DNA of 63,768 bases from Actinomycetota bacterium (GCA_037445995.1 JBBIJK010000005.1:16433-80200); one strand, 5' to 3'; shown: positions 3,398 through 14,763, numbered from the stretch's first letter. Numbers and translations: made by a program. Notes: a model not told the origin generated them from the letters alone.

Positions 3398-4201
3398 TCA
3401 GTATGGCCTGATGAGCGTGATCTCGAAATGGTGGTAAGTCCCCGGGAAGACGCTCCATATCCACAGCGCGAGCAGCAGCAGCGGGAGCACCGACACGACC
3501 GCTGCGGCAAGCCCTCTGCCGGACAGACTATAGAACAGCCGGGCGTGGATGACGAGGGCGTAGGCGAGCCATGCGACCATGGACAGCGTGCCCACCACGT
3601 CCCAGCGCCAGAACTCGGCGAACAGCAGGTAGAGGTACCAAGCGCCGGTCAGTATCATCGCCGTCATCGCCAGGAAGCCGACGTTGAGCCACGAGCCGAT
3701 CGCGTCGTCGGACGCCTCGGGCGTCATGCCCCAGGCCGGACGGCCGAGCAGTCTGGGGACGGACACGCTGGTGGCGGCGAGGAAGCCGGCGAACGCCACC
3801 CACGCGAAGATCGCGTGCGCCTCCACCCAGAGCGACTGCTCGGAGATGGTGAGCGGCAGAGGCTCCCGCCGGAAGAAAGCCCCGTAAAGCAGGAGGGCCA
3901 GGGACCAGGGCGCCGCCCAGCCCCACGCGCCCGCGGAGTCACGCCGCAGCGAAGTGACGACGGCCGCCCAGGCCAGGAACACCGACGCCAGGAGCGTGTT
4001 CTCGAACGTCCCGAACATCGGGATGTGGCCGGCCGCGGCCCACCTCAGGGCCACCGCGAGGGTGCCCAGGACCGCGACGGCCCGGCAGACCCACCGCGAC
4101 CACGCCAGCGGCCCCCGCGCGACCGCCCACAACAGCAGGACGCACAGGACGATCACCCCGGTGGAGTAGACGGCCAGCGAGACCTCGAACGCCGCTCTCA
4201 C
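3398..4201 (-). CDS. ccsA: CcsA/ResC-like cytochrome c assembly protein (System II heme handling)
   Basis: 267-aa polytopic membrane ORF. Contains GHIPMFGTFENTL, the Trp-rich segment GAWYLYLLFAEFWRWDVVGTLSMVAWLAYALVIHARL (a degenerate WWD domain followed by the conserved His), and an internal VEAHAIFAW His. The GTG start overlaps the stop of the upstream resB-like gene (GTGA). Confidence 0.75.
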   Translation of the reverse strand: MRAAFEVSLAVYSTGVIVLCVLLLWAVARGPLAWSRWVCRAVAVLGTLAVALRWAAAGHIPMFGTFENTLLASVFLAWAAVVTSLRRDSAGAWGWAAPWSLALLLYGAFFRREPLPLTISEQSLWVEAHAIFAWVAFAGFLAATSVSVPRLLGRPAWGMTPEASDDAIGSWLNVGFLAMTAMILTGAWYLYLLFAEFWRWDVVGTLSMVAWLAYALVIHARLFYSLSGRGLAAAVVSVLPLLLLALWIWSVFPGTYHHFEITLIRPY

Positions 4202-5535
4202 GTCCCGGCCCCCTTACCCGAGGCGCCATCCGAGATACGGCGCCCGACCTCGCGGGCCAGAGGAAGGCCGGCGGCGCGCCCCGGCCGTCCGTCGACGCGA
4301 GCGAGGACCCCGAGCCCCTCGCCGTGCCTCCAGACGACCACGTGCCTGGCCGGGAGAAGGGTACGGCATCCAAGCCCGGCCGTCATCATCACGCCCGCCA
4401 GCGCCAGCAGCGGCCAGCCGTACGAGCGCCACACGCGAAGGACGCCGAAGCGCCGCATCTCGGCCACCCTCACGTCCATGCCCGACACGCCGAGCGTCTC
4501 ACCCACCGACACCAGACGCCTGCCTTCCACCACCCCTGAAGGGAAGGTGCGCTCGACCCCCATCAGCACCTTTGGGTTCCGCAGGTTGTAGCTGGCCGAG
4601 ACGTCACGGCCCCCCATCCTCGCGTGGTCGGGGTACACCACCATCGACACCGTGTAGCCATGCCCCGGCAGGCGCACCCTGTCGAGCGAGCCGGGCGGGA
4701 AGAGCGCCGCGGCGGCTATGACCTCCTCGACCACCTCGCCGGATGGCGACAGCAGCTGGATGCGGGGGGCGTACCCGAAATCCTGCACCGACATCAGCGT
4801 GAACGGGTCCAGCCAAAGAGGCGAGGACAGGGAGAACCCCCGCGTCCTCCCGGTGCCCTCCTCCACCACCGTCGCCGCCAGCCGCTCGAACAGCAGCACG
4901 TCTTGGAAGAAGGACGGCTCGAGTGTCTCAAGCGTCAGGCTGGCCGCCGATGAGGGCAACGCCTCCCAATCCCCCTCTCCGGCCGCGAGGCCAGCGAGCG
5001 GGACGTCGCTGCTCTGACCCTCGATGAGCCTGAACTGGATCGAGCCGGCGGTCGCGGCGTGCGCCACCAGCCCGGCCGCCAGCAGAGGCACGCCCAGGTG
5101 GAAGAGCGAGCCCGACAGCAGCGACCATCGCCTCTGGACGCCCGTGACCCGGTCCTCAAGGCGCGAGACCGCGAATCCCATTCGGCCCAGAGCGGCCTGC
5201 GCGGCCTCCAAGTCCCCCACGCAACTATCCATCGGCTCAAGAGGCAGAGGGCGGCCGGCGGAGCGCTTCAGCCGCAGGCGGCCGAGGTCCTTGCCCAAGC
5301 GCGCCAGGCCGCAGACGGCGCTTGTGGCCACCAGCGCCCAGTGGGCTGCCCTGAAGGGCAGCCAGTCGTTGCCGATGCCCCGGAGCGTCGCCTCGGGCTG
5401 GCCGGTGAGCTGGAACGGGACCAGCCACACCAGCGCCAGCGCGATCCACGCCCCGATCACCCAGAAGGACGCGACGCGCGACGACATGGCGTCGAGGAAC
5501 AGACTCAGGGCGCGCCGTACCGGCGTGCGCATCAA
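4198..5535 (-). CDS. ResB/CcsB-like cytochrome c biogenesis protein, divergent copy
   Basis: 445-aa ORF (ATG at 5532 is the second codon). Layout is N-terminal TM, WLPFRAAHWALVATSAVCGLARL helix, RRWSLLSGSLFHLGVPLLAAGLVAH helix, a large soluble middle and a C-terminal TM WPLLALAGVMMTAGLG, which is ResB-like topology. Lies 38 nt downstream of the giant cytochrome gene. Confidence 0.6.
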   Translation of the reverse strand: MMRTPVRRALSLFLDAMSSRVASFWVIGAWIALALVWLVPFQLTGQPEATLRGIGNDWLPFRAAHWALVATSAVCGLARLGKDLGRLRLKRSAGRPLPLEPMDSCVGDLEAAQAALGRMGFAVSRLEDRVTGVQRRWSLLSGSLFHLGVPLLAAGLVAHAATAGSIQFRLIEGQSSDVPLAGLAAGEGDWEALPSSAASLTLETLEPSFFQDVLLFERLAATVVEEGTGRTRGFSLSSPLWLDPFTLMSVQDFGYAPRIQLLSPSGEVVEEVIAAAALFPPGSLDRVRLPGHGYTVSMVVYPDHARMGGRDVSASYNLRNPKVLMGVERTFPSGVVEGRRLVSVGETLGVSGMDVRVAEMRRFGVLRVWRSYGWPLLALAGVMMTAGLGCRTLLPARHVVVWRHGEGLGVLARVDGRPGRAAGLPLAREVGRRISDGASGKGAGT

Positions 5536-5574: not shown

Positions 5575-8500
5575 CTACCTGCGTCGGCTGTAGTAGTAGA
5601 TGACGCCGTCGGAGCCGCGAGGGTTGGTGGGACCGTGCTCGTTGCAGGTAGCGTAGGTCGACGTGAACTCCTGCGTCACGCAGTTGGCGGCGCCGTCGGG
5701 CAGGTTCGCCCCTACGTCCTCGTACCGGTGCGAGGCTCCCCAGACCGCGCCGTTCATCATGCGATAGCCCGCCGCGGTCCACTGCGCCGTCGGGGACGCC
5801 TCGCGGTTGGTGCCGTGGAGGGCGCCCGACGACGGCCAGCCCGTGCGGGGTCTGGCGCCGTGGCACTGGTAGCAGCCGATGTTCATCAGGTGAGCCATCC
5901 CCCAGCTTGCGGTGCCGGCGTCGTCGACCCTGCTGCACCCCGAATGGTTGAATCGCGACAGGTTACGGTAGGTCGCGCCGTTGACATACACGTCGGCGCG
6001 GTGGCAGTTCACGCAGAAGTTGGACGCGTTGGTGTTGGTGTTGTTGTTGGGCAGGAGGACCGATCCGCCAGCGACCGTGACCTTGACGGCGGTGTCCTTA
6101 CCTCGAAGTTGCCAGCGGCTCGAGGAGCCGTGAGGCGTATGGCAGTCGGTGCAGGTCACGAGGCTGGCGGCCTGCCATCCGTTGGTGAAGGTGTTGGACA
6201 GGCCGTTGTTGATCTCCGCGGTGCCGATGCGGCGGCGCCCCGCGCTGGTGTTCCAGTTGGTGTTGGCGTTGACCGGGGGCTGGTTCCAGCCGCGAGCGAA
6301 CACCGGGTGGTATGAGGTCATCGACGGGTTGAAGTCGCGACCGACGTCGGTCTGCTGACCGCCGCCCATTGCGCCCGCGCCGGACTGGTTGGCCGTGCTC
6401 AGGCTCACGAGCGGCGTGGCGGCGGTGCTCCACGCGTAGCGGCTGTGGCACTTCAGGCACAGCTGCCACTGGTAGGAGATCGTCTCGACCTTGGAGTACG
6501 TCGGGAAGGCGGGGGTGATGGTGGTCCCGCTCCCCGTCCACGTCCCGTTGACCGACCCGGAGATGGTGACGCCCCAGACGCCGTACAGGGCCCCTCCGAG
6601 CGGTACGGCAGTGTCGGTCGGCCTCACGCTGTGGAATTCCGGCAGGGTCGATGCACCGGAACGTGTCGCGTGGACGTTGTGGCAGTCCATGCAGCTCGCG
6701 TGCCGGGTGGCACCGACGTTCCAGCCCGCGGCCGTGTTCTCCTGCGCGGAGTGCCGCTCCCGGCCGATCGGGTGGCGGTACGGACGCGCGAAGTCGCTCT
6801 CGACGCGGCTGGCCGGCCAGGTCAGCGGCTGGGAATCGTAGTAGTCGCGCCGCTTGACCGCGTTGGGGTTGCCAAAGCCGTGGCACCGGTAGCACAGCGT
6901 CGGGTAGGAGGTGCCCGTCGCGTTGATGGAGACGCCCATGCCGGCCAGCAGCGTGGCCTCGGCGGAGAAGTGGAGGCCAAAGCGGTCGGGGCCGATCGCC
7001 TTGCTGCCGGTGTTCTCGTCGTCGTGGCACTTGGAGCAGTTCGCCCTGAAGTTGGGCTGCCCCGCGGCCAGGGTGCCCGGGACCGAATAGTTGTGCGCCG
7101 AGGCGGCGTAGTCCTGCGGGGATATCCCGAAGACGATCGGGCCGCCGCCGGCCCTCTGGTTGACGTTGTCCCTTGGCATGTTGGAGGAGTGGCAGCTCAG
7201 GCAGATCCCGTAGCTCGGGTTGCCGCTGGCGATGAAGTCGGTGTTGGTGCCCCCCGTCGAAGGCTGGGCGCCGATCGAGAAGCGCAGGTTCGCGGCGGGG
7301 TTGGCGTTGAAGTAGTTGTGGTCCACGTGGCAGGAGACGCACTGCAGCACCGACGTCGATGTCGGATAGGCACCGGTGCCGGGCGCCGCGTCAGGCGGCG
7401 AGCCGTCGAGCACGTGATGGAAGAAGCCGGTCTGACCCGTGTTCATCGCCTGATACGGATGGCATCCGTAGCAGGGCAGGGTGCCGTTGGAGCCGCCGCC
7501 CGTGGGCTGGTGGACGTCCGCGTGACAGCCCAGGCAGCTCTGCGTGGTGTCGTAGTGGTAGTGGCCGTTGACGTTGGGCAGCCTCAGCTTGGGGCCGACC
7601 GCCTGCCCGACCGCCGACTGCGTGAAGCGGCTGAAGCCAAGGGCGCGGTCCCCGACGGTGACGGACTGCATCGCCGAGCCGTTCCAGCCCGAGTTGCCGC
7701 TGGCGGTGGTGTGACAGCTGAAGCAGAAGTTGCGGACACCCTGGGCGGTACCCACGTTGAGCTCGCCCACGCCGTCACCGACGGTCACCGTCGTGCCGTT
7801 GTACTGCGTGATCACCTGCAGGCCGTACGTGGTCTCGCCCGAGCCGTGCGGGTTGTGGCACGCGTAGCACGGGATCGGCGAGCCGCCGGCGAACACGGTG
7901 CCGGTGGTGGACACGGTGCGGTGGCCCGAGCGGGGGTCGGTGCTGGAGCCGCCGACCGACGTCGGGTACTTGGCCCTGATGTCCAGCGTCGATGGCGAGC
8001 CGTCGTGGCAGGTGAAGCAGAAGGTGAACGAGGTGTTCGTGAACGTGCTGGTGGACGGGGTGCCTCGCAGGTCGTCAAGGGGGTTGGCGGTCCCGTGGAC
8101 ATCGTGGCACTGCTTGCAGTCGCCGCTGACGTAGGGGTTGGGCGAGAAGTCGGGCCAGCGCACGTTGACCGTCGAGGTGTTGTGGATGCCGCGCGCGATC
8201 CAGGTGGCAAAGCCCGGCCAGGCGCCGTCGGTCGGGTAGAACGAGGCTGTCAGCGATGGATGGGCCTGCGCCGGGAACCCGGTCGAGGCGACGTTGTGGC
8301 ACGCCTGGCAGACGCGGTTGTCGTTTGCGGTGATCGTCAGGGCGCCGATCGTGTTGACGTTGCTGGCGGCCTGGTAGGTGCCGAGCAGCTTGGGCGCCGC
8401 CGAGCCGTGCTTGTCGTGACAGTCGTCGCAGGTCTGGATCTCGCCGGCCGATATCGAGCCGTTGGGGATCCAGTGGCTGCGGGCCTGGTTGGGTGACTTG

Positions 8501-11500
8501 TTGGAGATGGCGGTCTTGGCAGCGCCGATCACGACAGGCGTCGGGACGAGCGATGGCGAGACGGACCACGCCGAGGGCACGGTGCCGTTGTGGCAGCTCA
8601 TGCAGAACTGCGTCCTGTCGTCCTTGGTGGCCCATGCGGCCGGCAGGTAGGTGTTGGTCGGCGAGGAGATCTTGGAGGTGTTCGAGACCTCGTGTGGGTT
8701 GTGGCAGTTCACGCACGCGACGCGAGAGCCAGAGGCGTTGCCAGAGACCGGGTGCGTGGATGCGCGAGAGAAGACCGCCTGGGTCGCGCGGTCCGCCACC
8801 GACATGGCCGCCACGCCGTAGTGGTCGGTCGTCGTGCCGTTGTGGCAGCGGAAGCAGGACTGCTCGAGCAGCGGGTCGACCATCGTGCCGCCAAGAGCCG
8901 AGAGCAGACGGCGCTCGGGCGAGACGTGCGCGGAGAACTTGTTGGCAGAGCTCTGGAACTGCTCCGTGGGGCTGTCGGAGTCGTGGCACTTGACGCAGTT
9001 GGCGCGGAAGGTCGATGAGCCGAACGTAGAGGTCGCGTTGTAGCTGTGCGTGGAGGTGGTGAACACCGAGCCGCTTATCGCCGCGACCCCGTTGCGGCCG
9101 TCACTGCGCTGGTTGGTGAGGTCCTTGGTGCGCGCCGTCGAGTGGCACGAGACGCAGATGCCGAAGCTGCCAGAACCGATGAAGTCGGTGTTGGTGGCAA
9201 GGGCGCCAGAGGTGTTGGTGATGGCGATGCGCAGGTTGGCGGCGGGCGAAGTCGGGCTCGAGCCGTTGAAGTAGTTGTGGTCGGTGTGGCACGAGACGCA
9301 GAAGACGTCCTGGTTCGATGTCGGGTAGGTCCCGGCGCCTGGCGCCATGTCGCCGGTGTAGGCGACGGTCGAGGTGCCCAGCACATGGTGGTAGGCGTTG
9401 GTCTTCTGGGTGCCGGCCATGTCCATGGTCTCGCGGAAGGCCGTGTGGCAGCTGTAGCAGTTCGAGCCGCCGTTGGAGATGCCGCCCGTGGGCTGGTGCG
9501 GGTCTGCGTGGCACTGCAGGCAGTCCTGCGTGGTGTCGTAGTGGTAGTGGCCGTTGACGTTGGGGAGCCTGAGCTTGGGGCCGACCGCCTGCCCGACCGC
9601 CGACTGCGTGAAGCGGCTGAAGCCAAGGGCGCGGTCCCCGACGGTGACGGACTGCATCGCCGAGCCGTTCCAGCCCGAGTTGCCGCTGGCGGTGGTGTGA
9701 CAGCTGAAGCAGAAGTTGCGGACACCCTGGGCGGTACCCACGTTGAGCTCGCCCACGCCGTCACCGACGGTCACCGTCGTGCCGTTGTACTGCGTGATCA
9801 CCTGCAGGCCGTACGTGGTCTCGCCCGAGCCGTGCGGGTTGTGGCACGCGTAGCACGGGATCGGCGAGCCGCCGGCGAACACGGTGCCGGTGGTGGACAC
9901 GGTGCGGTGGCCCGAGCGGGGGTCGGTGCTGGAGCCGCCGACCGACGTCGGGTACTTGGCCCTGATGTCCAGCGTCGATGGCGAGCCGTCGTGGCAGGTG
10001 AAGCAGAAGGTGAACGAGGTGTTCGTGAACGTGCTGGTGGACGGGGTGCCTCGCAGGTCGTCAAGGGGGTTGGCGGTCCCGTGGACATCGTGGCACTGCT
10101 TGCAGTCGCCGCTGACGTAGGGGTTGGGCGAGAAGTCGGGCCAGCGCACGTTGACCGTCGAGGTGTTGTGGATGCCGCGCGCGATCCAGGTGGCAAAGCC
10201 CGGCCAGGCGCCGTCGGTCGGGTAGAACGAGGCTGTCAGCGATGGATGGGCCTGCGCCGGGAACCCGGTCGAGGCGACGTTGTGGCACGCCTGGCAGACG
10301 CGGTTGTCGTTTGCGGTGATCGTCAGGGCGCCGATCGTGTTGACGTTGCTGGCGGCCTGGTAGGTGCCGAGCAGCTTGGGCGCCGCCGAGCCGTGCTTGT
10401 CGTGACAGTCGTCGCAGGTCTGGATCTCGCCGGCCGATATCGAGCCGTTGGGGATCCAGTGGCTGCGGGCCTGGTTGGGTGACTTGTTGGAGATGGCGGT
10501 CTTGGCAGCGCCGATCACGACAGGCGTCGGGACGAGCGATGGCGAGACGGACCACGCCGAGGGCACGGTGCCGTTGTGGCAGCTCATGCAGAACTGCGTC
10601 CTGTCGTCCTTGGTGGCCCATGCGGCCGGCAGGTAGGTGTTGGTCGGCGAGGAGATCTTGGAGGTGTTCGAGACCTCGTGTGGGTTGTGGCAGTTCACGC
10701 ACGCGACGCGAGAGCCAGAGGCGTTGCCAGAGACCGGGTGCGTGGATGCGCGAGAGAAGACCGCCTGGGTCGCGCGGTCCGCCACCGACATGGCCGCCAC
10801 GCCGTAGTGGTCGGTCGTCGTGCCGTTGTGGCAGCGGAAGCAGGACTGCTCGAGCAGCGGGTCGACCATCGTGCCGCCAAGAGCCGAGAGCAGACGGCGC
10901 TCGGGCGAGACGTGCGCGGAGAACTTGTTGGCAGAGCTCTGGAACTGCTCCGTGGGGCTGTCGGAGTCGTGGCACTTGACGCAGTTGGCGCGGAAGGTCG
11001 ATGAGCCGAACGTAGAGGTCGCGTTGTAGCTGTGCGTGGAGGTGGTGAACACCGAGCCGCTTATCGCCGCGACCCCGTTGCGGCCGTCACTGCGCTGGTT
11101 GGTGAGGTCCTTGGTGCGCGCCGTCGAGTGGCACGAGACGCAGATGCCGAAGCTGCCAGAACCGATGAAGTCGGTGTTGGTGGCAAGGGCGCCAGAGGTG
11201 TTGGTGATGGCGATGCGCAGGTTGGCGGCGGGCGAAGTCGGGCTCGAGCCGTTGAAGTAGTTGTGGTCGGTGTGGCACGAGACGCAGAAGACGTCCTGGT
11301 TCGATGTCGGGTAGGTCCCGGCGCCTGGCGCCATGTCGCCGGTGTAGGCGACGGTCGAGGTGCCCAGCACATGGTGGTAGGCGTTGGTCTTCTGGGTGCC
11401 GGCCATGTCCATGGTCTCGCGGAAGGCCGTGTGGCAGCTGTAGCACGCGCTCCCGCCGCTCGAGCCGCCCGGACTCGGGTTGTGGACGTTGTTGGTGGTC

Positions 11501-14500
11501 GCCCCCGTGTAGTCGCTGCCGTGGCATCCGTAGCACGACTGGGTGTCGGCGTTGTAGTGGCCGCTCACCGGCGGGATCTTCAGGTGGGCGCCGTTGGCGT
11601 CGTAGGCCGTGCGCGAGATGCCGAGGTGGACGTCCCCGGCCTGCAGGGTGACCATCGTCGAGCCGTTCCACGCCCAAGTGGAGGTGGACTCCGCCGAGCC
11701 GTGGCAGCTGAAGCAGAACCGGCGTACCGATGCGGGGGTCGGCGTGCCGGTGACCGTGATCTCACCCGTGCTGTCGCCGATCGTGATGGTCGCCCCGCGC
11801 GTGCGGGTGACGACCTTCAGACCGTATGGCGAGGCGGTGCCGTGCGGGTTGTGGCACTCGTAGCAGGGCAGCGCGCTGCCCGCGGCGAGCGAGCCTGGCG
11901 ACAGAGTGCGGTGGCCGAAGCGCGTGCCGGGGCTGCTAGCGCCGCCGAACGCCGACTGGACCGCGGTCCCGCCGGCCGCCACCGGGTAGTAGCGGCGGAT
12001 GTCGTCAGCAGCCGGGCTGCCGTCGTGACAGGTGAAGCAGAACGCGAAGGTCCCAGCCGAGTAGTTCGGCGTCGTAGTCGTCCCGCCTCGCAGGATGTCG
12101 AGGGTGTTGGAGGGCCCGTGCATGACGTGGCAGTTCTTGCAATCGCCGGTCGCAAGACCCGACGAGGGCCAGATCATGTTGGCCGTGGAGGTCCCGTGCA
12201 GCGAACCGGTGTGGTCGGCGGGGCTGTAGACGACCGCGTAGGTCGCCTCGCCGGGCCAGCGGCCCGTGAGCGGGTAGCCCGAAGCGTTGCGCGAGTAGGC
12301 GGTAAGAGCGCCTGAGTGGCAGCCGTAGCAGACGGTGGCGTTGTTGCCGGTCAGGGTGCGGGCGCCGATGCGCGAGACCGCCGCGGTCGCGTCGTACGTC
12401 CCCAGGAGTCTAGGGACGCGGCTGGCGTGGTTGTCGTGGCAGGCGGTGCACTGGATGCCGGGATTGGACGATGTGGAGGGCACCCTCGAGACGTCGGCGT
12501 GCAGGTTCAGCGAGGGCGTCCAGCCGGTGCGGTGATCGCCGCCTGAGTTCACGTAGGCGCCGGAGCCGCCGACTATCGCGATCAGGGTCGCGGCCGAGTC
12601 GGAAGCGCTGCCGTGGCAGTCGAAGCAGACCTGGTTCCCGACCGGGTTCGAGTAGCTGTTGTAGCGGTAGGTGACGGCGGGCGTCGTGATCTGCGTGCGG
12701 AGCAGCAGGTTGAAGGCGTTAGCGGGGTTCGGGTCCACCCCGGTCGTGGCCGGACGACGGTGCGGGGTGTGGCACGCGTCGCACTCGCGCTGAATCGACG
12801 CCATGTAGGCGTTGCGATGCACCCAGCGCGTGCCGCTGACCGACGGGCCGGTGGTGGCCACGACGGTGTCGTCGCCAAAACCGCCCTGGGAGTCGTAGGT
12901 CGAGCCCCAGCCGAAGGCAGCGGTGCCGGCGGTCGCGCCGTGGCACCTGTAGCAGGACTGCGCGCTCTTGGCCCCCAGCGACAGCGACTGGGCCGCGCCG
13001 TGAGGGGTGTGGCAGTTGGTGCAGTTGGCGATGTTGTAGCCCGAGAGATAGGTCCCGTGAGGGTCTGGTGAGGACATCGGCGACGTCGCCGAGACGTTCC
13101 CTGAAGCGTCGATGGCGCGGATCGTGTAGTAGTAGGTGTACTTCGCGGGCAGCGTCTCGGTGGTGCCCTTCGCGAACGTGGCCGAGGTGACCGAGGAGGG
13201 CACCGTCGCCACCTGCATCGGCGTGGCGGTGACCGTGCGGGAGCGCCACACCGTGTAGGTGGTGACTCCGCTCTGGTCGTCGCGCGCGGCGTTCCACGTC
13301 ACCGTGACCGAGGACAACCCGTCGACGCGAGCGAAGGGCCGTGACGGCGCGCTGGGCGGCGTGACGTCGAGCACCTCTAGACCGGTGGAGAAGGTGATGG
13401 GCTCGACCTCGCCAAGCGGATTGCCCGCGCGGTCGCGGAGGGCCGGCGAGATGCGGATGGCGTAGGTGCCGCCAGCCAGCGCCACCTTGGGCTTGAGTCT
13501 GACGGCCCTCTCACGGGCGGAGTAGGTGACCTCGGCCGACACCGGCTTGCCAGCGGCGTCGGCAAGACTGACCCCGCGCTCGGCCGTGGTCGGGTCAAGG
13601 CTCTCCGAGAAGGTCAGCGTGAACGAGTCCGCGCGGACGCGGGTGGCCCCCGTCGGCACAGATGCGGCGACGAAACGCGGGGGCACGCGATCGCGCACCG
13701 AGGCCATCCGCAGCCGCAGGGGGCTCCAGACCTTGGCCGGCGACATGTAGCTGGCGAAGGTCAGGCTCGGCCCCGCGCCGGGATAGGCGCGGACCTGCCA
13801 GCGTCCGGCGTTGCGCTCGAGCCAGACGACCGCGTCGCCCTGCGCCTCCACGCCCGACATCGGCCCCGAGCCGCGGGAGTCAAAGACGACGGGCTTGCGG
13901 TCCGAGAGCGAGAAGCCGTCGATGTGGAGGCGCTCGCCGGCGCTGTTGTCTATCCAGTACGCGACCCCGCCGCCCACCGTCGGCAGCGTCTGCTCCCCCG
14001 GCCCGGTGAAGACGTCGAAGGTCTCGCCGGTGGCCGAGTCCCAGGCCCTGAGGTCGAGGCTGTCCCCTGCGGCGGCGGCCCAGACCACGTAACGGCCGTC
14101 GGTGGAGGGCAGCATCTCGTTGACCGAGGTGCCAGCTATGGTCGTCTTGACGCCGCTGACCCGGTTCCAGATGCGAACGTCCGCGTCACCGCGGCCGCCG
14201 GCCTGCCCGGAGTAGTCCTCCCAGACCACCAGGTCGCCAGCCACCTGCGGGCGGCGCTTGGGACGGTTGTAGCCAGAGTCGATCCAAACCTCGGCGCCAA
14301 GGGAGATGTCAAAGCCGTAGACACCGGGGCTGTAGCCGGTGCGATAGTCCTCCCAGACCACCAGGTCGCCCCAGACCGACGGATTGACCTGGTCGTTGGC
14401 GGCCGCGCACACGACCCGGGTGGTCCCCGAGGGGATATCGAAAAGGTGTATGTCGGCCGTGCCCGCCGCGTAGCTCACGTAGACCACGCGGTCACCGTAG

Positions 14501-14763
14501 ATAGCGGGCTGGATCTCATCGGCCGCCGAAGACGCGATTGCACGCGTCACACCGGACGCCGAGTCCATCAGCATGATGTCGAACGAGCCCCCCGAGCGGT
14601 CCGCCCACACCACCCAGCGACCCGAGATCGCCGGGGTCTCGGGCATGCGCCCGCCAGCGGCGAGGGGCGACCCCGCGCCGTTCAGCGCGACCGCGACGGC
14701 CGCGCACAGCGCGAAAGCCGTTGCGAGTGCAACGGCCAGATAGCGCCTCGACAGCGTACGCAT
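5575..14763 (-). CDS. Giant secreted multiheme c-type cytochrome (~3062 aa, ~49 CXXCH) with propeller-like, Ig-like and FN3-like N-terminal domains
   Basis: ORF 5575..14844. I place the start at ATG 14763 (GGGAG 6 nt upstream), which gives the signal-like MRTLSRRYLAVALATAFALCAAVAVA. There are seven GxxVVWxD-type repeats, then SbsA-Ig-like and FN3-like segments. I count 49 CXXCH motifs (CTNCH, CYRCH, CDACH ... CYQCH), many as CXXCHxxH(G). Confidence 0.9.
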   Translation of the reverse strand: MRTLSRRYLAVALATAFALCAAVAVALNGAGSPLAAGGRMPETPAISGRWVVWADRSGGSFDIMLMDSASGVTRAIASSAADEIQPAIYGDRVVYVSYAAGTADIHLFDIPSGTTRVVCAAANDQVNPSVWGDLVVWEDYRTGYSPGVYGFDISLGAEVWIDSGYNRPKRRPQVAGDLVVWEDYSGQAGGRGDADVRIWNRVSGVKTTIAGTSVNEMLPSTDGRYVVWAAAAGDSLDLRAWDSATGETFDVFTGPGEQTLPTVGGGVAYWIDNSAGERLHIDGFSLSDRKPVVFDSRGSGPMSGVEAQGDAVVWLERNAGRWQVRAYPGAGPSLTFASYMSPAKVWSPLRLRMASVRDRVPPRFVAASVPTGATRVRADSFTLTFSESLDPTTAERGVSLADAAGKPVSAEVTYSARERAVRLKPKVALAGGTYAIRISPALRDRAGNPLGEVEPITFSTGLEVLDVTPPSAPSRPFARVDGLSSVTVTWNAARDDQSGVTTYTVWRSRTVTATPMQVATVPSSVTSATFAKGTTETLPAKYTYYYTIRAIDASGNVSATSPMSSPDPHGTYLSGYNIANCTNCHTPHGAAQSLSLGAKSAQSCYRCHGATAGTAAFGWGSTYDSQGGFGDDTVVATTGPSVSGTRWVHRNAYMASIQRECDACHTPHRRPATTGVDPNPANAFNLLLRTQITTPAVTYRYNSYSNPVGNQVCFDCHGSASDSAATLIAIVGGSGAYVNSGGDHRTGWTPSLNLHADVSRVPSTSSNPGIQCTACHDNHASRVPRLLGTYDATAAVSRIGARTLTGNNATVCYGCHSGALTAYSRNASGYPLTGRWPGEATYAVVYSPADHTGSLHGTSTANMIWPSSGLATGDCKNCHVMHGPSNTLDILRGGTTTTPNYSAGTFAFCFTCHDGSPAADDIRRYYPVAAGGTAVQSAFGGASSPGTRFGHRTLSPGSLAAGSALPCYECHNPHGTASPYGLKVVTRTRGATITIGDSTGEITVTGTPTPASVRRFCFSCHGSAESTSTWAWNGSTMVTLQAGDVHLGISRTAYDANGAHLKIPPVSGHYNADTQSCYGCHGSDYTGATTNNVHNPSPGGSSGGSACYSCHTAFRETMDMAGTQKTNAYHHVLGTSTVAYTGDMAPGAGTYPTSNQDVFCVSCHTDHNYFNGSSPTSPAANLRIAITNTSGALATNTDFIGSGSFGICVSCHSTARTKDLTNQRSDGRNGVAAISGSVFTTSTHSYNATSTFGSSTFRANCVKCHDSDSPTEQFQSSANKFSAHVSPERRLLSALGGTMVDPLLEQSCFRCHNGTTTDHYGVAAMSVADRATQAVFSRASTHPVSGNASGSRVACVNCHNPHEVSNTSKISSPTNTYLPAAWATKDDRTQFCMSCHNGTVPSAWSVSPSLVPTPVVIGAAKTAISNKSPNQARSHWIPNGSISAGEIQTCDDCHDKHGSAAPKLLGTYQAASNVNTIGALTITANDNRVCQACHNVASTGFPAQAHPSLTASFYPTDGAWPGFATWIARGIHNTSTVNVRWPDFSPNPYVSGDCKQCHDVHGTANPLDDLRGTPSTSTFTNTSFTFCFTCHDGSPSTLDIRAKYPTSVGGSSTDPRSGHRTVSTTGTVFAGGSPIPCYACHNPHGSGETTYGLQVITQYNGTTVTVGDGVGELNVGTAQGVRNFCFSCHTTASGNSGWNGSAMQSVTVGDRALGFSRFTQSAVGQAVGPKLRLPNVNGHYHYDTTQDCLQCHADPHQPTGGISNGGSNCYSCHTAFRETMDMAGTQKTNAYHHVLGTSTVAYTGDMAPGAGTYPTSNQDVFCVSCHTDHNYFNGSSPTSPAANLRIAITNTSGALATNTDFIGSGSFGICVSCHSTARTKDLTNQRSDGRNGVAAISGSVFTTSTHSYNATSTFGSSTFRANCVKCHDSDSPTEQFQSSANKFSAHVSPERRLLSALGGTMVDPLLEQSCFRCHNGTTTDHYGVAAMSVADRATQAVFSRASTHPVSGNASGSRVACVNCHNPHEVSNTSKISSPTNTYLPAAWATKDDRTQFCMSCHNGTVPSAWSVSPSLVPTPVVIGAAKTAISNKSPNQARSHWIPNGSISAGEIQTCDDCHDKHGSAAPKLLGTYQAASNVNTIGALTITANDNRVCQACHNVASTGFPAQAHPSLTASFYPTDGAWPGFATWIARGIHNTSTVNVRWPDFSPNPYVSGDCKQCHDVHGTANPLDDLRGTPSTSTFTNTSFTFCFTCHDGSPSTLDIRAKYPTSVGGSSTDPRSGHRTVSTTGTVFAGGSPIPCYACHNPHGSGETTYGLQVITQYNGTTVTVGDGVGELNVGTAQGVRNFCFSCHTTASGNSGWNGSAMQSVTVGDRALGFSRFTQSAVGQAVGPKLRLPNVNGHYHYDTTQSCLGCHADVHQPTGGGSNGTLPCYGCHPYQAMNTGQTGFFHHVLDGSPPDAAPGTGAYPTSTSVLQCVSCHVDHNYFNANPAANLRFSIGAQPSTGGTNTDFIASGNPSYGICLSCHSSNMPRDNVNQRAGGGPIVFGISPQDYAASAHNYSVPGTLAAGQPNFRANCSKCHDDENTGSKAIGPDRFGLHFSAEATLLAGMGVSINATGTSYPTLCYRCHGFGNPNAVKRRDYYDSQPLTWPASRVESDFARPYRHPIGRERHSAQENTAAGWNVGATRHASCMDCHNVHATRSGASTLPEFHSVRPTDTAVPLGGALYGVWGVTISGSVNGTWTGSGTTITPAFPTYSKVETISYQWQLCLKCHSRYAWSTAATPLVSLSTANQSGAGAMGGGQQTDVGRDFNPSMTSYHPVFARGWNQPPVNANTNWNTSAGRRRIGTAEINNGLSNTFTNGWQAASLVTCTDCHTPHGSSSRWQLRGKDTAVKVTVAGGSVLLPNNNTNTNASNFCVNCHRADVYVNGATYRNLSRFNHSGCSRVDDAGTASWGMAHLMNIGCYQCHGARPRTGWPSSGALHGTNREASPTAQWTAAGYRMMNGAVWGASHRYEDVGANLPDGAANCVTQEFTSTYATCNEHGPTNPRGSDGVIYYYSRRR
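7541..11445 (-). repeat. In-frame tandem duplication, period 1986 bp (662 aa, 14 CXXCH per unit), two copies
   Basis: 7586..9459 matches 9572..11445 with no differences seen. Overlapping ORFs in several frames are duplicated exactly at offset 1986 (for example 7812..8210 and 9798..10196, or 8075..8989 and 10061..10975). Two synonymous mismatches occur at 7579/9565 and 7585/9571. Identity decays outside 7541 and 9459/11445. Confidence 0.9.

Follow-up and report, generated by a model that had tools for sequence, protein, structure and literature searches.

Two 14-heme modules of a giant actinobacterial cytochrome share an identical 1,874-nucleotide tract, probably maintained by gene conversion within an older in-frame duplication

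The window analysed here, the whole 63,768-nucleotide (nt) stretch of an Actinomycetota bacterium (GCA_037445995.1 JBBIJK010000005.1:16433-80200), contains one multiheme gene, which encodes a giant c-type cytochrome. The host is an uncultured subsurface Coriobacteriia-type (Anaerosomatales-related) actinobacterium. The gene probably starts at ATG 14763, as in NCBI protein P0001, and its stop lies at 5575. Comparison of the protein with itself resolved four homologous modules in the order M0-M1-M2-M3. The gene, its modules and the subdivisions of the two full modules are as follows (aa, amino acids).

5575..14763, minus strand: giant multiheme c-type cytochrome gene, 3,062 aa with 49 CXXCH heme motifs, stop codon included.
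11449..12963, minus strand: M0, a partial old module copy, aa 601-1105, profile positions 196-660, ~35% aa identity to M1.
9460..11445, minus strand: M1, a full module, aa 1107-1768, 662 aa, 14 CXXCH.
7474..9459, minus strand: M2, a full module, aa 1769-2430, 662 aa, 14 CXXCH, made up of the perfect tract and a divergent tail.
6646..7473, minus strand: M3, a partial old copy of the module head, aa 2431-2706, profile positions 1-262, ~29% aa identity to M1.
9572..11445, minus strand: perfect tract, M1 copy, 1,874 nt, module codons 1-625, 13 CXXCH.
7586..9459, minus strand: perfect tract, M2 copy, the same 1,874 nt.
9460..9571, minus strand: M1 tail, the last 37 codons, CLQCH...DPHQPTGGISNGGSN, the only sequence unique to the tandem junction.
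7474..7585, minus strand: M2 tail, CLGCH...DVHQPTGGGSNGTLP; together with 14 further nt (from 7460), 22 of 126 nt are unlike the M1 tail.

When the window was compared with itself at an offset of 1986, the longest exact run was 1,874 nt (7586-9459 = 9572-11445), within the sole long repeat of the window (7483-9459 versus 9469-11445, 99.3% identity). The initial annotation had described a perfect 1986-bp duplication. Its period was recovered and equals 662 codons (1986 = 3 x 662), so that the reading frame is preserved; overlapping open reading frames (ORFs) in other frames were again found duplicated at +1986, and 7579/9565 and 7585/9571 are, as had been noted, synonymous differences, both at third codon positions. 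Perfect identity, however, extends over 1,874 nt only. The homology had been thought to degrade at both ends, but at the high-coordinate border identity ends abruptly at 9459/11445, where the Cys codon of heme motif 1 begins in both modules. At the low-coordinate border it does decay gradually, with 22 mismatches over 126 nt (7460-7585 versus 9446-9571) and identities of ~96%, 80% and 64% in successive 50-nt steps; the last 112-126 nt of the 1,986-nt unit differ by 17% between the copies. The distribution of mismatches (0/1874 in the core versus 22/126 in the tail, Fisher p = 6e-28) leaves chance no role, and the mismatches do not stem from a uniform process. Thirteen of the 14 CXXCH motifs believed to be duplicated exactly lie inside the perfect tract, whereas motif 14 of each period is part of the divergent tail, where it reads CLQCH in M1 and CLGCH in M2. 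Purifying selection was ruled out as the cause of the identity because synonymous sites are identical as well.

Copy number was evaluated in four public runs of one subsurface-metagenome study that contain the sequence, all as Logan contigs and none long-read. Run X1 contains 100% of the flank words, X2 represents a strain that is 1-2% different, and X3 has low coverage. Depth over the repeat relative to its flanks, a comparison that the initial annotation had proposed, was about twofold in X1, where the flanks stand at 12.4-13.9x and the collapsed repeat contig (7540-9459, 1,920 nt) at 24.4x (repeat/flank 1.95); in X2 the collapsed repeat reached ~49-52x against a flank depth of 31.3x. A junction unitig at 9430-9555 (126 nt), which spans the M1 tail joined to the M2 head, was present in X1 at 10.8x (0.86 of flank depth) and in X2 at 25.5x (0.81 of flank). 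Only a tandem arrangement creates this join, and at least two tandem copies are therefore required. The contig ends coincide with the loop graph expected of a tandem duplication. Because the repeat is at ~2x and the junction at ~1x flank depth, the copy number is about two, and one or three copies would misfit. We conclude that the repeat is a real two-copy in-frame tandem arrangement and that an assembly artefact is unlikely.

Two of the runs also show departures from this pattern. In X2 the repeat and junction depths are both ~0.8 of the two-copy expectation, and repeat contigs with strain single-nucleotide polymorphisms (SNPs) have a mean depth of 1.57-1.67x flank, not 2x. In X3, viewed over window positions 6500-12500, no junction contig was found, contigs pass unbroken across both repeat borders, and repeat depth is 11.3-14.5 versus 6.7-8.6 in the flanks (1.3-1.7x flank). 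These depth patterns in X2 and X3 point to one-copy alleles as hints, not as evidence. X3 also represents a third haplotype: positions 7655 and 8152 have strain S alleles (see below), and a C>T change at 10765 is new. Low-depth joints (e.g., 7040->12025) were considered as structural variants and rejected, as one side of each is only 21-26 nt long, the reading frame is not kept and they lie at conserved heme motifs.

A protein search returned only two full-length relatives, P0001 from strain S (locus L002), which is 99% identical to the window protein, and P0002 from orthologue A (locus L001), a 54% identical protein from an 'Actinobacteria bacterium' metagenome-assembled genome (MAG); both loci are syntenic with the window. 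The comparison of orthologues, likewise proposed at the outset, was informative, as both S and A carry two modules. Strain S contains the repeat with 1,880 nt exact. Between the window genome (W) and S, 135 of 9,189 sites differ (1.5%), and all 20 differences in the core (20/20) occur in both copies, though graph collapse would give the same picture and depth is only a partial control against it; in X2 contigs the S alleles stand at roughly twice the depth. Orthologue A, whose copy number and identity were taken from the assembly alone, has the same M0-M1-M2-M3 layout as the window gene, and its M1 and M2 share a perfect tract of 1,286 nt at an offset of 1989, covering approximately codons 29-457 as compared with codons 1-625 in W. 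On either side of that tract the sequence has diverged, with 9 mismatches between M1 and M2 in the first ~84 nt before it and 163/613 nt (27%) differing, with indels, in the C-terminal third. The diverged flanks indicate that the duplication in A is clearly old and that its central tract was recently homogenised.

Over the core, nucleotide identity is 100% between M1 and M2 of W and 100% between M1 and M2 of A, but only 67-69% between W and A, and within-genome clades have a bootstrap value of 100%. Paralogues within a genome are thus more alike than orthologues between genomes, the signature of concerted evolution. The tails show positional orthology, as expected of unconverted flanks: the M1 tails of W and A both carry DPH.P.GGISNGG, the M2 tails of both carry DVH.PTGGGSNG.LP, and seven tail nucleotide sites follow the orthologous-by-position pattern as opposed to one with the opposite pattern, over ~14 codons. 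The tails therefore argue that the duplication is older than the split of W and A, and on the best reading of these sequences it would predate the divergence from the 54%-identical orthologue.

A wider survey placed these genes in a family. A scan of species-representative genomes with a module alignment returned 16 loci, the best at 46% identity (44% over the whole module), whereas the same genome scan with a full-length alignment gave no match, and a scan of metagenome contigs added no closer relative. The module is present in Anaerosomatales/Coriobacteriia MAGs (L003-L011, L015, L017); Geobacteraceae have only the first ~260 module residues in common with it. The relatives follow a common gene plan of a partial module, n full modules and a partial module, with the following numbers.

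L006: one full module, 33 CXXCH.
L008: one full module and a 522-position partial module, 33 CXXCH.
W and S: two full modules, 49 CXXCH.
A: two full modules, 48 CXXCH.
L005: two full modules, ORF cut at the contig start.
L007: three full modules, ORF cut at the contig end.
L003 and L010: four full modules, 75 CXXCH.
L009: four full modules, 75 CXXCH, ORF cut at the contig start.

Exactly 14 CXXCH are found in 23 of the 24 full modules. Adjacent modules in the other family genomes have 65-81% DNA identity and no perfect tracts. Bootstrapped neighbour-joining trees were made separately for the N-terminal two-thirds and the C-terminal third of the module. In the N-part tree, within-genome pairs are formed by L005 m1+m2 (99%) and L010 m3+m4 (100%), whereas the C-part tree contains the cross-genome pairs L010_m3+L005_m1 (99%) and L010_m4+L003_m4 (98%); L010 m1+m2 pair in the C part only (100%). 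This conflict implies that partial homogenisation of neighbouring modules recurs in the family, of which W and A are the most recent cases. The modules are mosaic in both respects that were compared: tract borders differ between W and A, and in L005, L010 and L003 the tree of the N part contradicts that of the C part at 98-100% bootstrap. As an observation apart, L006 encodes two giant multiheme ORFs back to back in one Coriobacteriia MAG (L006:1-5367 and L006:5531-13669), the first of at least 1,789 aa with 45 CXXCH and the second of 2,713 aa with 33 CXXCH.

The explanation that best accommodates these results, and that is probably correct, is an ancient in-frame module duplication homogenised by ongoing intragenic gene conversion. 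RecA-type recombination between modules on the same or a sister chromosome would copy one module onto the other, by intragenic gene conversion or by unequal sister-strand exchange, i.e., by concerted evolution. Conversion tracts would stop on one side where homology runs out, at the module start, and would taper off on the other, 37 codons short of the module end; in W the 37-codon tail is then what has escaped conversion. The recombination mechanism is inferred. The initial annotation had offered ongoing gene conversion as one of its readings, and this reading is supported by the position-orthologous tails, by the independent tract in A with its different borders and by the strain differences present in both copies.

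Several points weigh against this interpretation. The positional orthology of the tails, which covers ~14 codons, is its weakest link, and shared structural constraint at module junctions may contribute to it. In the C-terminal third, the branching order of W and A has a bootstrap of only 22-40%. The close clade consists of three genomes only (W, S and A), and the wider genome and metagenome scans gave none further. The assemblies are all short-read metagenome assemblies, and de Bruijn graphs collapse near-identical copies, with the loop walked twice; the 'zero differences' and the 20/20 common strain differences are therefore partly built in. Finally, position 8861/10847 is T in both window copies but C in the collapsed contigs of X1 (8861) and X3 (10847), which is either a copy-specific variant masked by graph collapse or a population SNP.

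These last points bear directly on a rival explanation, possible though rather unlikely, in which the copies are very similar rather than literally identical and bubble-popping or graph collapse yields both the 'perfect' identity and the co-variation. It is compatible with gene conversion. The related MAGs have contig names (NODE_/k127_) of short-read graph assemblies, and both the T versus C discrepancy and the reduced depth of the SNP-bearing X2 repeat contigs are in its favour. Each hidden difference, however, halves the depth of 31 k-mers, and the X1 depth of 24.4x versus 2 x 12.5x (~25 expected) leaves room for only a handful, roughly six or fewer copy-specific sites; in X2 the single-copy junction unitig is equally low (0.8), so that the shortfall is not confined to variant sites. 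The copies could be slightly less alike than the perfect identity suggests.

A very recent duplication had also been suggested in the initial annotation. The W lineage would then have acquired its tandem repeat de novo, separately from A and with no time for divergence, and we consider this very improbable. Zero differences over 1,874 nt would be expected from such an event, and the exact 662-codon unit would result if the conserved first heme motifs (CYSCH/CYGCH), which lie at module starts, had exchanged unequally. A fresh duplication predicts identity across all 1,986 nt, however, and is contradicted by the graded divergence of the tails, by the separate tract in A, which has the same two-module layout with 27% divergent parts, and by the presence of the repeat with 20 co-varying sites in both strains, 1.5% apart. 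The M1 tail moreover differs from both the M0 tail and the M2 tail and shares signature residues with the M1 tail of A; as it was not copied from the M0 tail, M0 and a full module cannot recently have undergone unequal exchange. An assembly artefact, in which the genome truly has one copy or at least three and the graph loop was walked the wrong number of times, draws on the inability of short reads to span a 1.9-kb perfect repeat, on loop resolvers that default to one extra traversal and on the X2 and X3 departures described above, but it is highly improbable given the junction unitig in X1 and X2, the X1 k-mer depth of 24.4 versus ~12.5 and the failure to observe the 3x repeat and 2x junction depths that three copies predict.

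On the reading of an old duplication homogenised by conversion, the same recombination substrate would permit in-frame gain or loss of modules, and each module would lengthen the chain by 14 covalently bound hemes. The initial annotation had expected unequal recombination to make the number of modules and hemes variable; between species this is borne out (1-4 modules, 33-75 hemes), and within the population W and S both have two copies. Since X2 depths are ~0.8 of expectation and X3 lacks a junction contig, there is room for population-level length variation, and copy-number variation within the population is only hinted at. A more speculative and rather doubtful proposal is that the cytochrome is a length-adjustable heme wire, in which recombination within the tract would fairly often add or remove a whole 14-heme module in frame, populations would contain one-, two- and perhaps three-module alleles, and lineages would settle on 1-4 modules matching cell-wall thickness or mineral distance. 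If true, the protein would be a redox-active analogue of the variable-length 'periscope' surface proteins.

The locus offers a concrete, dated mechanism for heme-number change, in which a 14-heme cassette was duplicated in frame and would be kept recombination-competent by conversion. With cassette number ranging from 1 to 4 in related Coriobacteriia/Anaerosomatales, and hemes accordingly from 33 to 75, the prediction is that metal reducers of the Gram-positive type can adjust the length of their electron conduit one module at a time. Where MAGs come from short reads, heme counts and 'identical' repeats also call for depth or long-read checks.

The cytochrome begins at its N terminus with a signal-like hydrophobic segment; seven propeller-like 'VVWxD' repeats come next, then a Big_5 Ig-like domain and the 49 CXXCH. 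The many motifs and the signal-like segment together identify a secreted multiheme c-type cytochrome. Pfam matches are Paired_CXXCH_1 (6.7e-71), MtrC/MtrF II-IV (3.8e-65), Cytochrome_C7 (1.5e-34) and Big_5 (2.6e-13), and Paired_CXXCH_1, Cytochrome_C7 and Cytochrom_c3_2 all exceed their own cut-offs in the 3,062-aa protein. A PDB sequence search with the module gave no match at E <= 0.01, and a structure model predicted from a three-row alignment of the module was unusable (mean predicted local distance difference test score, pLDDT, 25; predicted template modelling score, pTM, 0.16). No LPXTG anchor is present in the sequence near the C terminus.

Downstream of the cytochrome, on the same strand, lie two System II heme-attachment genes, whose order is conserved in L002.

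4198-5535, minus strand: weak ResB-like ORF.
3398-4201, minus strand: CcsA-type cytochrome c assembly protein gene.

Upstream lie argH and the arg operon, and CW_binding_2 proteins are encoded near the cytochrome in L002. The protein would be exported and would receive its hemes through the neighbouring System II genes; covalent heme attachment is presumed. We infer an extracellular location and an electron-transfer role, with the long heme chain serving extracellular electron transfer through a Gram-positive-type envelope, presumably in a wire-like manner.

Modular growth of multiheme cytochromes is established as 'grafting and pruning' of heme modules (Soares et al. 2022, PMC9250108; PMC11492766), and GSU1996 is an example of concatenated c7 modules (PMC9250108; PMC11492766). 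As in GSU1996 and other modular cytochromes, a module is repeated here in one polypeptide, giving 33, 48-49 and 75 hemes for one, two and four modules, but the unit is far larger (662 aa, 14 hemes) and the copies are DNA-identical over 1.9 kb, apparently homogenised after duplication. Why heme number varies among homologues, and at what pace, has been called largely unexplored (PMC7399161). Our literature search found no paper tying gene conversion or concerted evolution to multiheme cytochromes, and none by the accessions VAUM01 or FDZ70. The terms 'gene conversion' and 'recombination' each occur 0 times in PMC12977616, as do 'tandem', 'repeats' and 'repeated' in PMC11492766.

The MtrC/MtrF domain II/IV pentaheme profile PF22113 matches ten stretches of the cytochrome, and terminal extracellular electron transfer is a likely role by analogy with MtrC/OmcA/MtrF. 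The four-domain layout of MtrC (two beta-barrel and two pentaheme domains) is nevertheless absent, PF22113 alone matching, repeatedly; no solved structure matches it in sequence, the host, a Gram-positive-type actinobacterium, has no porin partner gene in the window, and the protein is about five times larger. Judged by its predicted architecture, the cytochrome is not a member of the MtrC family. Gram-positive metal reducers such as Thermincola potens (OcwA), Carboxydothermus ferrireducens and Anaerosomatales have cell-surface multiheme cytochromes, which resemble it in being secreted multiheme proteins of a monoderm-type host, and here the ResB/CcsA genes are adjacent and the relatives lie in Anaerosomatales/Coriobacteriia MAGs. 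OcwA has 9 hemes, and the likeness to it is one of description. Cultured Anaerosomatales reduce Fe(III), and isolates have 17-18 multiheme cytochrome genes (PMC9686372); those cytochromes are much smaller, with no repeat structure reported.

Two better-known classes of repeated bacterial genes resemble the locus at the DNA level. Duplicates such as tufA/tufB and the rRNA operons undergo concerted evolution by RecA-dependent gene conversion, and here too paralogues within a genome are closer than orthologues between genomes while the edges escape homogenisation. 'Periscope' Gram-positive surface proteins (Rib, SasG) contain DNA-identical tandem repeats of variable number, and as in these proteins the repeats are in frame and their number can change without breaking the protein. 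Unlike them, the cytochrome has only two copies, without variation in repeat number between strains W and S, and no LPXTG at its C terminus, and its repeat carries redox cofactors rather than forming a passive stalk.

Several further observations concern related proteins and the region upstream. A second family, P0003-P0014, has the N-terminal ~800 aa in common with the cytochrome (propeller-like repeats, Big_5 and the first hemes), followed by a different body with fewer hemes and, at the C terminus, a conserved 'HGWKRPRLL' region; the N-terminal ~800-aa unit seems to be a reusable surface-display head. In P0006, an Arg/His/Gly-rich low-complexity stretch in the middle ~450 aa breaks the otherwise conserved sequence and looks like out-of-frame read-through from a frameshift or contig assembly error. 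P0016, which bears the JGI name 'CxxxxCH...CXXCH cytochrome family protein', contains near-identical internal repeats (GTCANTYCHGATLTGG...GCGTCHG[YF]PPATA, three times), and its C-terminal region is homologous to the head of the 14-heme module. In the X2 strain, 16 nt are missing at window position ~14909, in the intergenic region between argH and the cytochrome gene upstream of the start codon at 14763, and this absence may affect the promoter or 5' leader.

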